The translations under genes were made by a program, and so were the position numbers. Below the pieces are notes generated by a model. The model saw nothing but the letters and a program-made list of their open reading frames with translations, ran no database searches and was not told where the DNA came from. From an uncultured Planctomycetaceae bacterium (lineage in GTDB: Bacteria > Planctomycetota > Planctomycetia > Isosphaerales > Isosphaeraceae), in contig CAWIAD010000002.1 in the NCBI GenBank assembly GCA_963833985.1, positions 1,120,001 through 1,184,000 on the forward strand: a DNA stretch of 64,000 nt. Reading direction: 5' to 3'. This document shows positions 23,876 through 31,397 of this stretch, piece by piece. Position 1 is the first letter of the stretch. Each line of letters starts with the position of its first letter.

Positions 23876-23937
23876 CGTCGTCGCGGAATGCCAGTTGCGA
23901 GCCACCCTCACGTCGTGCTCGCACATGGTTGTAACTC

Positions 23938-24057
23938 GTAGGGTGGTTCATCGCAGCGCAACCCACCATCTGTGAACCACCTACGTGCAGCACCTCGCAC
24001 CCGCCCCGCGACGAGCACGACGATTTCGTAGGGTGGTTCATCGCAGCGCAACCCACC
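23938..24057 (+). repeat. Tandem pair of identical GTAG-REP elements (GTAGGGTGGTTCATCGCAGCGCAACCCACC)
   Basis: Exact 30-nt copies at 23938-23967 and 24028-24057; GTAG followed by a GGTGG/CCACC hairpin. Confidence 0.85.
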
Positions 24058-24232
24058 GTATATCAACCGCTTGCGTGCGTCGACCTGCACGCCCCCCGCG
24101 GCGTCCGGTTCAAACTCTTCGTTCCCGGCCCGCTTGATCGTGCTCCACCTCCTCGCGACCGCCCGACCCGCCGGCGTTCTCTCCCGAACTCCACCGGATC
24201 GTGCAATACGACCCTGCCCGGCACCTCCCGTC

Positions 24233-25491: not shown

Positions 25492-25892
25492 TCAGGGCGT
25501 GAGCCAATCCTCCAGCCGGAGTCCGCGGATGTTCTGGAAATCTGCGGTGTTGTTCGTGACGAGGGTCAGGTCGTAGACGAGCGCCACGGAGGCGATCAAT
25601 AGGTCAACTGGATTGACATTCGTACCTTGTCGCAGCAGATCTCTCCGCATCTGGCCGAAGATCCGGCGCAATCGTCATCGAAATCAAGCCGGGTCACCTC
25701 GTCACGGAGCAACCCCTCGATCGCCGACAATCGAGCACTCGGGTCTTCCTTCCCGAAGGCCCAGACGTAGAGTTCCGCCAGTGCGATCGATGACAGGTAC
25801 AGACGCCCGGAATACTGAACGAACCGGTGTGCGAGTCCACCGGGTCGTTTCAAGTAGACCGAGACGATGTTCGTATCGAGGAGATAGCTCAC
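25492..25892 (-). CDS. vapC: VapC family PIN-domain toxin; 1-nt deletion at ~25665
   Basis: [10 protein letters not shown]...SIALAELY; shifted frame continues [38 protein letters not shown] start overlaps the antitoxin stop. Confidence 0.85.
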
Positions 25893-26197
25893 TCCGGCAG
25901 CTCCCGCCACCTTGACGCCTTGCGGTCTGCCTGAATCTGGTCGAGAATCCGGTCATCCTTTTCCGTCCATTCATCCGCCAGGACGCCCGCCACCTTCGAG
26001 GGTGCGCCAGGGCTCCAGCCGGGCGGCGGTCCAGGCAGCGTCTTTGGAGTCTTTGGGAGCTGACTCGCTTCCGGTGGATGTTCCAGCGATCCGGAGGGGG
26101 TAACGACCAGCTCGACGGCTTGCCCTTCCCACATCCCAAGATCCTCGCTGATCACGATCGTTTTACCGTGAACAATTCCATGCAGGACTCTTGTCAT
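25889..26197 (-). CDS. Putative antitoxin (AF2212/DUF104-like N-terminus)
   Basis: MTRVLHGIVHGKTIVISEDLGMWEGQAVELVV; acidic C-terminus; AAGGAG RBS; coupled upstream of vapC. Confidence 0.7.
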   Translation of the reverse strand: MTRVLHGIVHGKTIVISEDLGMWEGQAVELVVTPSGSLEHPPEASQLPKTPKTLPGPPPGWSPGAPSKVAGVLADEWTEKDDRILDQIQADRKASRWRELPE

Positions 26198-26233: not shown

Positions 26234-27710
26234 CTGTACTTTCCGCGATTTCGCTCCCTAACTTCGTGAGCTGATTCGGGTAGACGAATGCCGGTCCGGC
26301 CGGGACGATGTCGGTTAGCTGACCAAAACATCAACCCGGACGGAGCCGGCCATGACATCTTCGCACCAGGATGTGCCTGCATGCCAGTGGTTCTCGCGCC
26401 TCGCCGAATTCCTCGACCGCAGATCGGCTCCCAGACTGGCCTGGCTGTTCCTCGGGGCGGTCCTGGCCCGCGGGCGGAGGACCGTCATCAGCTGGATCCG
26501 AGCCGCTGGCCTGAGCAGCCAGTTTCGACCCTGCTACACGACGGTCGCGGCTGCCGGCAAGCAGGCCAAGAACATCGCCGCCCGCCTGGTCTGCGAGGTC
26601 GTCAAGCCCTTGGTTGCCAACCAGACGCGGCTCACCTTGGCGATCGACGACACGCCCACAGAGCGTTACGGGCCGCTGGTCCAGGGAGCTGGCATCCATC
26701 ACAACCCGACTGCTGGCCCGGCGGGTTCACCACATGTTTACGGCCACATCTGGGTGGTGATCGGGCTCCTGGCCGCCCATCCCGCGTGGGGAGTCATCGC
26801 GCTGCCGCTGTGGGCGCGGATGTATGTTCGAGTGAAGGATCTGCCCGCGATCTACCCGCAGCATCGGCCGGAGTTCCAGACCAAGCTGGAGATGGCTGTC
26901 GAGCTACTACAATGGGCTCGCTCCTGGTTCAAATACCTGGGCAAGCCGCTGTGGGTCGTGGTCGACGGGGCGTACGCCAAGGCCCCGTTTCTGAAGCCGG
27001 CGATGTCGCTGGGGATGACAGTTGTCAGCCGCTTGCGCAAGGACGCGGCGCTCTACACGGTGCCGGGACCCCGCGTGGCCGGGCGTCGCGGCAGGCCGAG
27101 GAGCTACGGGGAGAACCGGATCGAGTTGGCCAAGCGAGCCGGGCAGCGTCGCGGCTGGACGAGCGAGGTCTTCAAGCTCTACGGCAAGCCGGCGAAGAAG
27201 CTGTACAAGACGTTCGTGGCGACCTGGCGGCCTGTCAGTGGCACGATCCGTGTCGTGCTGGTGGACGAGCCGGGGGGCTGGGTGGCCTTCTTCTGCACCG
27301 ACCCGAATGCATCGGTGGGCGAGATCTTGGAGGCCGTCGCCGACCGGTTTTCGCTGGAGACCACGTTTCGCGATTGCAAGGAGGTCGTGGGGGCTGGCCA
27401 GCAGCAGGTGCGGTTCGTGTGGGCAAACATCGGTGCATTTCACATCTGCCTGTGGACGTTCACGATGACCGAAGCGTGGGCCTGGAACCGTCAGGAAGAC
27501 GAGTTGGTGGACCGGAAGGCATCACCGTGGGACGATCCGAATCGCCGCCCGAGCCATGCCGACAAGCGTCGGGCCTGGCGTCGCGAATTGCTGGCCGCAG
27601 AGATTCGCGGCGTTTTACGCCCTGGGGTCACCGAGGAAGAATTCCAGGCCGTGACCGAGCGGCTGCTCGCCCTGGCGGCATGAAGCTACAGTCATTCGCG
27701 GAAAATGCAG
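26234..27710 (+). mobile_element. IS701-family insertion sequence
   Basis: Terminal inverted repeats CTGTACTTTCCGCGA (26234) and revcomp CTGCATTTTCCGCGA (ending 27710), 13/15 identical, enclose a single transposase; no target duplication visible. Confidence 0.8.
26352..27683 (+). CDS. IS701-family DDE transposase
   Basis: LAIDDT, VVVDGAYA, SRLRKDAALY, RFSLETTFRDCKEVVG (RxxIExxFxDxK) motifs. Confidence 0.9.
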   Translation: MTSSHQDVPACQWFSRLAEFLDRRSAPRLAWLFLGAVLARGRRTVISWIRAAGLSSQFRPCYTTVAAAGKQAKNIAARLVCEVVKPLVANQTRLTLAIDDTPTERYGPLVQGAGIHHNPTAGPAGSPHVYGHIWVVIGLLAAHPAWGVIALPLWARMYVRVKDLPAIYPQHRPEFQTKLEMAVELLQWARSWFKYLGKPLWVVVDGAYAKAPFLKPAMSLGMTVVSRLRKDAALYTVPGPRVAGRRGRPRSYGENRIELAKRAGQRRGWTSEVFKLYGKPAKKLYKTFVATWRPVSGTIRVVLVDEPGGWVAFFCTDPNASVGEILEAVADRFSLETTFRDCKEVVGAGQQQVRFVWANIGAFHICLWTFTMTEAWAWNRQEDELVDRKASPWDDPNRRPSHADKRRAWRRELLAAEIRGVLRPGVTEEEFQAVTERLLALAA

Positions 27711-27959
27711 TAGTCAAGCGAGCCGCGGTTTTTTCTTCTGAGAATTTGCTCCTGCTTACGAGGATTTGGGGGTGTCGTCGATCTTAATCGTAGTTCTGTT
27801 TACGTAGTTTCTTCCTTTCCCCTCTTGTCGAGCCCGAGTTGAGCTCCAGTGGTCTACTCGATCGCCGCCTTCCGCGGCTGAGGATTCAGGACCTGTGTGA
27901 TGCTCCTGGTTAAACGGGAAGTCATCAATTTCATGTGTGTGCACTTGATGGTCCGATGA

Positions 27960-28160
27960 GTTTCGCCGCCGGTTGTCCCATTCTTCTATCCGAGCGTTGG
28001 CCCAAAGGCCTAGCCCCAATGGGTGCTTCGAGACGGTTGAAGAGGACGACCCCATCTACAAACGAGCATCAAGCCCAAGGGTGGGGCGAATCGCCCTCTT
28101 CAGCCCGGGACGCAACGGTGATTCTCAATAACCAACATGCCTCGCTTTGTGAATCAATGT
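27960..28160 (-). ncRNA. Putative IS110 bridge/seek RNA (target-binding loop 28038-28102, candidate donor-binding loop 27975-28034)
   Basis: 15-bp stem TGAAGAGGGCGATTC/GGGTCGTCCTCTTCA encloses loop strands GCCCCACCCT and TTTGTAGATG plus an inner hairpin; a second similar stem-loop-stem follows. RNA ends are approximate. Confidence 0.7.
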
Positions 28161-28162
28161 GT

Positions 28163-29186
28163 TCAGGCCGCTTGTTTCAGTTTGATCGGTCCTCCTGCGA
28201 CTTGGTGGAACAGCCAACGGACCCAACGGTTCCCGACCGCGGCGGCAACGACACAGGCGGGCTTGCCGGCCTGTCTCATCGTCGTGGCCAACGCCTTCCA
28301 GCGCGGGTTGTAGCGGATCAGTCGGTGGGCGGTCTCGATGATCGTGGCGCAAGTACTCGTTGCCCGCCTTGATCAGCCCAGCGTCGGCCTGACGTTGGCC
28401 GCTGGAGGCATTGCGCGGCGACAAGCCGCAGTATCGTGCCATCTGCTTGCCGGTGCTGAACCGATCGAAACGACCGATCTCTGCCCGCAAGCACCAGTCC
28501 GTCACCAAGCCGACTCCGGCGAGCAAGATCAGTTGGCTGACGACCGGGTCCTCGGAAGTCACCTGAGCCAAACGTACTTCGACATTGAAGATCGCGTCGG
28601 CGACGTCGCGGAGTTCTTCGATCAACCGATTGGCGACCCATCGGGCTTCGCTGCCGAGCCCTTCGGCGGTCGCCAACCACGTCAGCCAGGTCCGTCCCCA
28701 GCGCCGGGCCTTGGGTTCGACGACACGGTTGTCGCGGAGCAACGCGGTCACGCGAAGCTTGGTGTTGCGACGCCGGTTGGCGAGCTGCTGGCGATAACGG
28801 GTCAGGGTGCGGAGCTGGCGGACGTCCGCGGGTGCCAGCCAGACCCTGGGCAAATAGCCGACGCGGACCAGATCGGCGATCACACGGGCATCGACCCAGT
28901 CGGTCTTGTCGGGAGTCTGCTTCATCCGCGCGACATAGCCGGGGTGCGCGAGGTTGATGATCCAGCCATGCTTCGTGGCCAGTTCGTCGGCGAGGTTTGC
29001 GGCGCCAGAGCAGGCCTCAATGGCTGCCCGGACATCACCGCCGAAAGGTGCGACCAGCTTGACCAGGGCCTCAGCCTGATTCTGACAGGGCCGGTTCGCG
29101 AGCATCTTGCCAGAGGAGTCCATGACGCACACTTGAATGGAATCCTTGTGGTAGTCGAGGCCAATGTAAGCAGTTACCTTGGACAT
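28163..29186 (-). CDS. IS110-family DEDD recombinase/transposase; frameshift at ~28348
   Basis: IGLDYHKD, AIEAC, KTDWVDA (DEDD); C-terminal GVG...EIGRFDRF...YCGLSPRNASSG (catalytic Ser); shifted frame gives TIIETAHRLIRY...KQAA-stop at 28163. Confidence 0.92.
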
Positions 29187-29338
29187 GGTCTGTTGCTCCG
29201 CTCTGAGGGATGGGGTTCGACTCCTCCAGGGTAAACCCCGCGATCGTGTCGCGGCAGGAGCAACAGGCTTTCATCCCCATCTACAAGAGTGGAGACGACC
29301 GGGTGCGAGGGGTTTCGGGAATTACCGCGCGAGGTGGT

Positions 29339-29410
29339 CCGGTGGGTTGCGCTGCGCTGACCACCCTACAAGAGTGCCCACTGCCGACTGCCCACTGCCG
29401 ACTGCCTACT
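29339..29410 (-). repeat. GTAG-REP element followed by ACTGCC[C/G] heptamer repeats
   Basis: CCGGTGGGTTGCGCTGCGCTGACCACCCTACAAGAGTG is the near-exact reverse complement of the 23938 REP; followed by CCCACTGCCGACTGCCCACTGCCGACTGCCTACT. Confidence 0.8.
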
Positions 29411-29537: not shown

Positions 29538-29773
<236 letters not shown>

Positions 29774-29774
<1 letters not shown>

Positions 29775-30148
29775 TGCGTTTCAAGGTCGACGAGAACCTG
29801 CACCCGGACGCCGCCGATCTCCTGCGGGCAGCCGGTCACGACGCCATGACCGTCTTCGACCAGGGGCTTCGTGGCCACCCGGACGAGGACATCGCCACCG
29901 TCTGCCAGCGTGAGCAGCGGGCCATCGTGACCCTCGACCTGGATTTCAGCAACATCCGCCAGTACCCGCCCGAGGACTACCCCGGCATCATCGTCCTTCG
30001 GTTGGAGAACAAGGGCCGCCCGTCCGTGGTGATCGCCCTCACGCAGATTGTCCCTTTGCTCGCCACGGAGCCGCTGGCCGGACACCTGTGGATCGTCGAG
30101 GAGCAGCGGGTGCGAATTCGTCAGGGCAGAACCAGCGGCTTGCCGTGA
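29774..30148 (+). CDS. DUF5615 family PIN-like toxin
   Basis: MRFKVDENL...DEDI...IVTLDLDF...GIIVLR; TGATG overlap with the DUF433 gene. Confidence 0.9.
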
Positions 30149-30446
30149 ACTGGGCAAAGAGATGATGGCGGCGTCACCGAACACCGGCTCCAGCCGAACG
30201 CCAGGCCGGCCGGGGACCCTTCGCCCGTGGTCCGGTCAAACTCCGATCGGCACTGAGGATCGCTCGCCGCGGACCTGACAACGCCAGCGGAGAGGTTCGC
30301 TCTCGAATACGGATCTTCTCTCCAGCCGCCGGTCCAATGGCTCGTCGATCGGCCAGCGACCACGAGTCAAGGGGCTTGCCACTTCTCCAGCCATCTGAAC
30401 AATCAGAGGAGAGGGCTCGGAGACCCGGAAGAAACAGGAGACCGCC

Positions 30447-30677
30447 ATGATTACCGTGACGATCCAGGAGGCCCAGACCGGGCTGCCGGAGTTGATCCGC
30501 CGTCTGACGCCAGGGGAGGAGGTCATCATCACGGACGACGACAAGCCGGTGGCCAGGCTGTCTCGCAGCGAGCCGAAGACCACGTGGCCGTGCAAGGCGG
30601 GTAGCGCCAGGGGCAAGGTCTGGATGGCTCCGGATTTTGACGCCCCGCTCGAAGAGTTCAGGGAATACATGGAGTGA
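30447..30677 (+). CDS. Type II antitoxin (Phd/YefM-like N-terminus + DUF2281-like C-terminus)
   Basis: VTIQEAQTGLPELI...GEEVIIT...KPVARL...GSARGKVWMAPDFDAPLEEFREYM; AGGAG RBS. Confidence 0.88.
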   Translation: MITVTIQEAQTGLPELIRRLTPGEEVIITDDDKPVARLSRSEPKTTWPCKAGSARGKVWMAPDFDAPLEEFREYME

Positions 30678-31060
30678 ACCTGCTTTTGGACACCCACACT
30701 CTGCTCTGGTTCCTCAACGACGACCCCAGCCTGAGCGTCGCCGCAAAGGCCCTGATCGAGGACCCGGTGAACCGCAAGCTCATCAGCGTTGCGAGCTGCT
30801 GGGAGATCGCCATCAAGGTCGGCCTCAAGAAGCTCGACCTCGGTGAACCCACCACGACGTTCCTGCCCCGGGAACTGGCGACGAACGGCTTCGATCTGCT
30901 CGGGATCGATCTGATCCATGCGACTTCTGTCGAGTCGCTGCCTCCGCACCACAAGGACCCTTTCGACCGGCTGATCATCGCACAGTCGATGATCGAGAAC
31001 CTGCCGGTGGTCAGCATGGACGCCCAGCTCGATGCCTACGGGATCACCAGGCTTTGGTAG
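30674..31060 (+). CDS. vapC: VapC family PIN-domain toxin
   Basis: LLLDTHTLLW, SVASCWEIAIK, HHKDPFDRLIIAQ; 4-bp overlap with the antitoxin. Confidence 0.92.
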   Translation: MNLLLDTHTLLWFLNDDPSLSVAAKALIEDPVNRKLISVASCWEIAIKVGLKKLDLGEPTTTFLPRELATNGFDLLGIDLIHATSVESLPPHHKDPFDRLIIAQSMIENLPVVSMDAQLDAYGITRLW

Positions 31061-31234: not shown

Positions 31235-31397
31235 CCGGTGGGCCAGCGCTGCGCTCGACCCACCCTACAAGAGTGCCTACCGCCTACTATTGACAGGCAA
31301 GAATGCCTGTCCTCCGCTTCCATTGACAGGCAAGAATGCCTGTCCTCCCTTCTTCACTGCCTACTGCTTGCTGCCTGCTGCCTGCTGCCTGCTGCCC
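31235..31397. repeat. Repeat mosaic: GTAG-REP (31235-31276), two copies of palindromic ATTGACAGGCAAGAATGCCTGTCCTCC (31289-31315, 31322-31348) and CTGCCT[G/A] heptamers
   Basis: Read directly from the sequence; GACAGGCA-AGAA-TGCCTGTC is a perfect 8-bp hairpin. Confidence 0.85.

Follow-up and report, generated by a model that had tools for sequence, protein, structure and literature searches.

IS1111 elements have subterminal repeats and a non-coding region downstream of the gene, in which the complement of the top strand comes first (Siddiquee et al., 2024, PMC11187229). The same paper demonstrates a seekRNA for the REP-targeting ISPa11 and natural redirection in ISEc11/ISXne4, and for 93% of IS1111 elements a bridge RNA has been predicted in the right end (Durrant et al., PMC11208160). 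An RNA encoded downstream, the targeting of REPs and reprogramming in nature have all been published before (ISPa11, ISEc11, IS621), and together form the known IS1111 pattern. By definition, GTAG REPs are numerous and extragenic, have GTAG at a hairpin foot and are linked to a RAYT gene (PMC6006769). Three sources (PMC13604230, 10.1101/2025.05.14.653916 and 10.64898/2026.08.14.744561) serve mainly as context.

How does the present locus compare? The window (the whole stretch of DNA that was analyzed, 64,000 nt) holds a broken element with a single recombinase gene. The reading that we favor, with a probability of roughly 93%, is that the downstream non-coding region of this IS1111-type element encodes a seek/bridge RNA of ~155 nt, whose guides would lead to the AG of a host REP and to the joined ends of the element. 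The gene is as follows:

28163..29186, minus strand: IS110-family DEDD recombinase gene (PF01548 and PF02371, reading frames, alignment to L003)

A profile search of the whole genome returns this gene as the only IS110 match. Intact homologs are 341 aa long; in the window, a 2-bp deletion near 28346, after codon ~280, disrupts the frame relative to a Singulisphaera protein that is 87% identical and the closest named homolog. Because near-identical soil contigs, all from one study, retain the frame at this site, the break reads as a lesion or an assembly error confined to the window copy. Three DNA sequencing runs gave only partial cover. A further homolog (81% identity) comes from an acidobacterial MAG. 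Two close matches were found in 60 related genomes; a search of 400 genomes of the phylum at E <= 1e-70 returned no relative except the window's own, and viral contigs yielded no relative. An intact homolog scores 207 bits with NF033542 (cut-off 140); across the aligned homologs the catalytic residues D11, E57, D96 and D99 are invariant and S261/S262 are retained, and the IS1111 hallmark GL-P----SG is present. Judged by layout, protein length and this motif, the element is likely IS1111-type, and every feature of IS1111/IS110 membership open to sequence testing was found. The best named matches in the plasmid collection are IS5708, ISPsy16 (30%) and IS4321 (25%), with a range of 25-31% identity; since the named ISs of that collection reach at most 31%, the clade is, on this comparison, uncatalogued. 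No paper on the clade, or on a planctomycete IS110 element that targets REPs, was found in the open-text literature, and a description may exist outside it.

The predicted RNA begins ~43 nt past the stop codon of the homolog frame, and its region is conserved in 76 of 87 loci as judged by alignment and folds:

27964..28120, minus strand: predicted seek/bridge RNA, ~155 nt, three-way junction (ends placed by the closing stem)
28038..28102, minus strand: target-binding hairpin, with a 15-bp outer stem, an internal loop and an inner GGGC/GCTC hairpin
28078..28085, minus strand: left target guide and core, CCCACC-CT (flank match in relatives)
28054..28061, minus strand: right target guide and core, TTGT-AG, followed by the predicted handshake dinucleotide AT

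The first-pass annotation had drawn this hairpin by eye, and its parts lie where it had put them: the 15-bp stem (28102-28088/28052-28038), CCCACCCT (28085-28078), TTGTAG (28061-28056) and the inner hairpin, together with an exact copy of the encoded 12-mer at 31259-31270 and a copy with one mismatch at 29360-29371. Its count of four G-U pairs in the outer stem is corrected to three. Against shuffles, the 81 nt of the target hairpin form a better fold (z -3.06; 1 of 200 shuffles as good); the whole 271-nt region, whose fold had been proposed as a check (z -0.95), and the second arm alone (z -0.20) do not. Among 47 sequences, 10 of the 15 pairs of the target stem have changes on both sides. The order is that of IS1111, with CCCACCCT before TTGTAG and TTGT-AG-GGTGGG on the gene-sense top strand. 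The right target guide matches the window copy's own flank at 4/4 positions; the other flank is lost, and the left-guide half of the window's target is taken from relatives and neighboring REPs. In two Singulisphaera copies, CCGTAG stands in RNA and flank alike, where the window copy has TTGTAG in both. Rfam returned three chance-level matches, none close to the cut-off.

If the loops are guides, their sequences should change with the insertion sites, a covariation that had been set beforehand as the refuting test. The comparison comprises 87 loci, the window and 86 homologous loci that are 52-100% identical to P0002, the intact Singulisphaera homolog; six came from other searches and the remainder are the best 80 of 555 metagenome matches. 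Left out were L005 (a fragment), L006/L116 (the window itself) and L009-L035 (25-35% identity). With the core position fixed from the RNA alone, the target loop could be parsed in 76 of the 87 loci and gave no parse in 11. The left guide matches the right flank at 6/6 positions in 36 of 56 loci, at 5/6 in 12 and at <=4/6 in 8 (mean 5.4 of 6); the right guide matches the left flank at 4/4 in 26 of 63 loci, at 3/4 in 25 and at <=2/4 in 12 (mean 3.2 of 4). When each distinct guide is represented by one locus, the means are 5.15 of 6 against 2.07 permuted for 31 left guides and 3.17 of 4 against 1.29 permuted for 28 right guides; 0 of 5000 permutations were as high in either case, counts that overstate independence among loci that are kin and are not a strict probability. 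The targets are unrelated words (CATAAC, GCCATG, GAATCC, TCCCGG and others). The eight poor left-guide fits are L001, L008, L041, L047, L055, L056, L062 and L113; in L001 the right end runs into the element's own coding sequence, and L008 and L055 fit with a one-base slip. Loop sequences do change with sites, and this covariation in homologs supports the earlier proposal of an RNA-guided recombinase with a downstream RNA and REP-directed guides.

CCCACC is the commonest left guide (19/74) and is scattered over a quick tree, on which it needs 13 changes, at least seven of them forced by strong branches; gains and losses are indistinguishable. The left loop strand is always 10 nt long, and the core-matching CT occupies positions 8-9 in one set of loci and 9-10 in a second set; both registers occur for a single target, TGCACC (L051 and L108 versus L070).

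The sites have a shape as well as a sequence. A perfect hairpin stem of at least 7 bp directly follows the core in 29 of 53 distinct right flanks, compared with 1.5% of AG sites within the elements (n = 3294) and 0.8% of those beyond them (n = 2840); by distinct flank hexamer, 14 of 34 have the hairpin and 20 fail the strict test. The four bases that end in the core are GTAG in 27 of 46, followed by ATAG, TTAG, AAAG, GAAG and GCAG. By these flanks, the clade inserts often, not always, at the base of palindromes that resemble REPs and belong to several families; no role for shape is needed to explain the palindrome bias, since selection for sites that are plentiful and harmless accounts for it. 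Could the protein instead pick the hairpin by shape, the guides being copies of the target acquired by local gene conversion or through an origin in the repeat? With more than half of the distinct sites at a hairpin foot, shape could contribute, and the RNA strand TTGTAG-ATGGGG shares all of its 12 nt with the left junction. Yet each half of the target has a loop strand of its own, the two running in opposite senses, and both track the site across 31 and 28 distinct guides; the tracking holds at the 20 of 34 flank hexamers that lack such a hairpin; the ATGGGG after the guide belongs to a stem and either stays constant or changes independently of the end (L004, L067/L068); and RNA guidance has been demonstrated for the family (PMC11187229, PMC11208160). 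We regard a copied origin of the guides as very improbable and keep to guidance by the RNA.

Does the second arm read the element's own ends? Both arms share one scaffold: CTCG, a left guide, a GGGC/GCTC helix, a right guide ending in AG, two bases and GGG. The donor arm and the stem predicted to close the RNA comprise:

28018..28023, minus strand: left donor guide CCCAT(T), matching the element end CCCCAT at 29275-29280
27981..27989, minus strand: right donor guide and core, ATAGA-AG, followed by the predicted handshake dinucleotide AA
28107..28118, minus strand: 5' arm of the closing stem, CCGTTGC-GTCCC, paired with 27979-27966 in the constrained fold
27966..27979, minus strand: 3' arm of the closing stem, GGGAC-AAC-CGGCGG

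The first-pass annotation had CCCAT and GATAG partly matching the element end; CCCAT does match CCCCAT, whereas GATAG is off register and the right donor guide is ATAGAAG (27989-27983), equal to the right end CAT-AGA-AG of intact relatives. Together, CCCAT and ATAGAAG match the circle junction CCCCAT-CT-TCTAT. Donor guides and ends hardly vary (GATAGAAG in 69 of 72 loci, the ATGGGG end in 68 of 73) and donor covariation is thin: L078, in which end and guide change together, is the sole clean case, and in L055, L067/L068 and L108 the end has changed with no clean matching change in the guide. This thin covariation speaks for a reading in which only the target hairpin works, as a short seekRNA, with the donor arm a processing or structural remnant and the ends read by the protein at the subterminal repeats; so do RNAs of short length, since RNAs of 70-100 nt are sufficient for ISEc11 (Siddiquee et al., PMC11187229). 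Against it, the donor arm repeats the target-loop scaffold (CTCG, GGGC/GCTC, AG, GGG), matches both donor halves and is >90% conserved, and L078 changes both partners. A dispensable donor arm is, on balance, improbable, and it would concern that arm alone: target guidance stands regardless. We retain an RNA that would read both target and ends.

The shape of the donor arm is a separate matter. It was first drawn, as in IS621, as a simple second hairpin, GTCTCG/TGGGAC (28034-27975). That pairing mirrors the target loop, its CTC/GGG is 93.7% paired by column count, and protein binding could select for it; column counts alone fit both donor-arm pairings. Folds with the guides held open disfavor it: the 3' GGG has the 5' end of the RNA as its partner in 61 of 65 folds and the CTCG side in one, and RNAalifold likewise pairs the 3' GGGAC with the 5' CCC, the stem continuing outward. 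One pair of the second hairpin has changes on both sides, versus three for pairing with the 5' end, and multi-loop donor arms have been noted in IS1111 orthologues (Durrant et al., PMC11208160). In the closing stem, a locus's own partner forms a duplex of -24.4 kcal/mol on average, versus -17.8 kcal/mol for the partners of other loci (median rank 6 of 65). The simple hairpin is thus unlikely, if less so than the two alternatives above, and the models predict a ~155-nt RNA whose 5' end closes a three-way junction holding the donor guides.

Two bases follow each right guide. AT follows the right target guide in 72 of 76 loci and is the same AT/AU as the handshake A81-U82 in the target loop of IS621 (PMC11208158, PMC13626964); as in IS621, its partner would be the incoming donor strand. 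Of 72 loci, 52 have A and 19 have G as the first donor handshake base. Where both ends are available (46 loci), an A fits the donor but not the target in 30 loci, and a G fits the target in 12 of 13. In IS621, G166A strongly lowers recombination (PMC11208158), so that the base most common here would be unfavorable there. Because the G loci lie nearly all within one branch of the quick tree and the register is borrowed from a distantly related protein, this difference is a lead, not a result. An extended 6-nt handshake was considered and rejected: only AT lies in the loop, and the rest is stem and does not follow the end.

The ends of the element can be set from its relatives. On the left, homology with L002-L007 begins at 29284-29286:

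29266..29282, minus strand: left end, with core AG (29282-29281), ATGGGG and the subterminal inverted repeat ATGAAAGCC (homology boundary)
29191..29266, minus strand: left-end inverted repeat CTGTTGCTCC ... GGAGCAACAG, covering the GGAG ahead of the start codon
29283..29291, plus strand: surviving target flank ACAAGAGTG, equal to the sequence after two neighboring REPs

Read in the direction of the gene, the left junction consists of the flank TTGT, the core AG, ATGGGG and ATGAAAGCC, in that order, and the left end is ~95 bp long. Its inverted repeat (at least 9/10 complementary, with paired changes, in 62 of the 71 loci that have the motif) would mask the GGAG ribosome-binding site of the recombinase gene, and resembles the inhibitory 5' leader reported for ISPpu9. 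CTACAAGAGTG has five copies in the genome, three of them within the window, and follows both neighboring REPs; because the surviving flank equals this sequence, the window copy very probably landed in such a GTAG REP. In 50 of 52 loci, 8-9 of the 9 positions of the left subterminal repeat are complementary to the right end. This repeat is a 9-bp core, shorter than the usual 11-13 bp of IS1111, extends to 11-15 of 17 among the 14 variant loci listed and covaries in L004; the right subterminal repeat is absent from the window copy. The complete relatives L003 and L004, which lie within a GTAG-GGTGGG hairpin, end in GGCTTTCAT, AGA and the core AG, and continue with GGTGGG and the remaining REP hairpin. 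The terminal extensions are thus 6 and 3 bp, plus the 2-nt core at both junctions.

On the right, the window copy is truncated, lacking the last ~25 bp, the core and the other REP half:

27713..27963, minus strand: remainder of the right end, terminating in TTGAC (27718-27713); similarity to L003 reaches 27797
26234..27710, plus strand: IS701-family element adjoining the truncated right end (NF049999, above cut-off)

Neither the missing right end, sought with four motifs, nor a second copy was found anywhere in the genome. With its 2-bp frameshift and with its right end lost at the IS701 element, the window copy is probably dead and unable to move by itself. The IS701-family element cuts the right end just past the -35-like TTGAC; its flanks hold no matching duplication, and a second piece of it, 450 bp, lies at G000:C2:5691802-5692251. 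TTGAC keeps the same place in 59 of the 61 right ends, which span 222-556 bp (61 loci); the longer ones (among L003, L036, L038, L041 and L046-L062) have extra conserved palindromic inserts between RNA and end. A 12-bp direct repeat, CCCCATCTACAA (28051-28062 and 29275-29286), was considered as the element ends and rejected, as homologs continue for hundreds of bases to the true right end. In L001 (1290-1600), the right end abuts, at the AG core, coding sequence of the element itself; the resulting partial tandem repeat may reflect a partial circle, self-insertion or faulty assembly.

What is the targeted repeat? The 10.2-Mb genome has 52 exact copies of the 12-mer CCCACC-CT-ACAA, where base composition predicts 1.3, and TTGTAG is followed by GGTGGG more often than by any other hexamer (52 of 2066 sites). 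GTAGGGTGGG has 146 genome copies, 130 of them with the closing hairpin arm within 45 nt. The motif clusters at two of seven Y1_Tnp matches, with 11 and 9 copies within 1.5 kb; RAYT-like Y1 transposase genes stand amid the targeted family at G000:C2:1566525-1566890 and G000:C1:530064-530423. By copy number, hairpin and RAYT linkage, the repeat fits a RAYT-linked GTAG REP. Two unoccupied copies lie near the element:

29341..29371, minus strand: GTAG REP with one mismatch to the encoded target
31238..31270, minus strand: GTAG REP that matches the encoded target exactly

These REPs often sit in arrays of a 7-nt TGCCTAC/TGCCCAC-like unit beside a TTGACAGGCAAGAATGCCTGTC repeat (window 29372-29392 and 31282-31380, and many other copies), REP and several tandem arrays forming a longer composite repeat. 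Two copies of a related REP variant, GTAGGGTGGTTCATCGCAGCGCAACCCACC, unlike the encoded target, lie at 23937-24060. Three toxin-antitoxin-like gene pairs lie between or beside REPs (29541-31060 and 25596-26197): DUF433/DUF5615 and Phd/PIN by Pfam, and a PIN-like pair on the minus strand recognized by eye only.

How would an intact copy move? Guides, matches to repeat and ends, covariation, subterminal repeats, DEDD and serine motifs and the two lesions can be read from the sequence; the circle, the junction promoter, RNA processing and strand exchange by a tetramer are modeled on IS621 and ISEc11/ISPa11. By analogy, the element would circularize, bringing CCCCAT-CT-TCT between the inverted repeats, and a junction promoter that uses the conserved TTGAC would drive both gene and RNA. 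A promoter and terminator scan of the linear copy found none, including no sigma-70-like promoter, and no convincing -10 box was recognized across the circle junction. The RNA would be processed, as in published members; its target guides would bring the recombinase to the AG in the host GTAG repeat, and its donor guides would read the joined element ends. A recombinase tetramer would then open target and donor, the four guides pairing with both strands, and strand exchange at the CT core would leave the gene antiparallel to the CT strand.

The mechanism itself adds little to the seek/bridge RNA system of 2024 and the IS1111 layout; the value of the clade is as a resource. What is added is an uncatalogued clade with many readable natural programs, a hairpin foot at 29 of 53 sites and a donor handshake base that is inhibitory in IS621. 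The resource is a compact recombinase of 341 aa, distant from both IS621 and ISCro4, that uses one donor and comes with at least 31 natural pairs of guide and target; it does not belong to the IS621-like clade that was mined for screens in human cells (10.1101/2025.05.14.653916). It offers test cases for (i) how an IS1111-type multi-loop donor arm reads ends, and (ii) whether palindromic targets are chosen for shape or elements only survive there, REPs being safe and plentiful landing sites. A bolder proposal, which we hold to be doubtful, is that this IS1111-like clade is a REP-tracking system: donor and scaffold would be constant, and the guides would have been redirected dozens of times to the xxAG foot of the palindrome family present in the host (GTAG, ATAG, TTAG, GAAG), with help from hairpin shape. 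Its RNA would be a three-way junction with the donor handshake base in the state that blocks IS621, and direction would then be controlled differently from the solved bridge recombinases.

Among described systems, ISPa11, ISEc11, ISKpn4 and ISPst6 share with the clade the downstream non-coding region, subterminal repeats, complement order and natural reprogramming, and IS1111 seekRNA elements likewise have a protein of 330-350 aa and a long RNA of 145-170 nt (PMC11187229). The junction here has 11 bp between the repeats (6 + 2 core + 3), versus 7 + 3 or 6 + 3 in those elements, and the fit to 7 (or 6) + 3 varies with how the core is counted. ISPa11 also targets a GTAG REP, but its insertion point is GTAGGG*CG (PMC13604230, Table 1), not the AG of GTAG; it is set beside the clade by description, the 25-31% identity given above being that of the named ISs of the plasmid collection.

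ISPpu9 and ISPpu10 of Pseudomonas putida likewise insert at an AG just ahead of a REP inverted repeat; they are described as IS110-group elements without subterminal repeats and with a bridge RNA upstream of the gene (PMC12288879). An unnamed Planctomycetes recombinase, 04158c8b1089212f4f (Durrant et al., Supplementary Table 1, row 471), shows by eye the clade motifs VGLDYH, LAHPGYV, VGYLP and CGLSP..ASSGQRQADAGLI; its row carries no ISfinder name, RNA, target or donor.

IS621 and ISCro4, the only solved relatives found, have distant proteins (E 4e-12 and 2e-13). Like the clade, they have a CT core, a target loop before the donor loop and an AU handshake versus a donor ending in AT (PMC11208160, PMC11208158, PMC13626964), and the natural IS621 target, ATCAGGCCTAC, has its core, as we read the published sequence, at this same GTAG foot in a REP. 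The RNA of IS621, however, is upstream, on the CT strand, whereas it is downstream and antiparallel here, and the predicted multi-loop donor arm and long inverted repeats set the clade apart from both IS621 and ISCro4.
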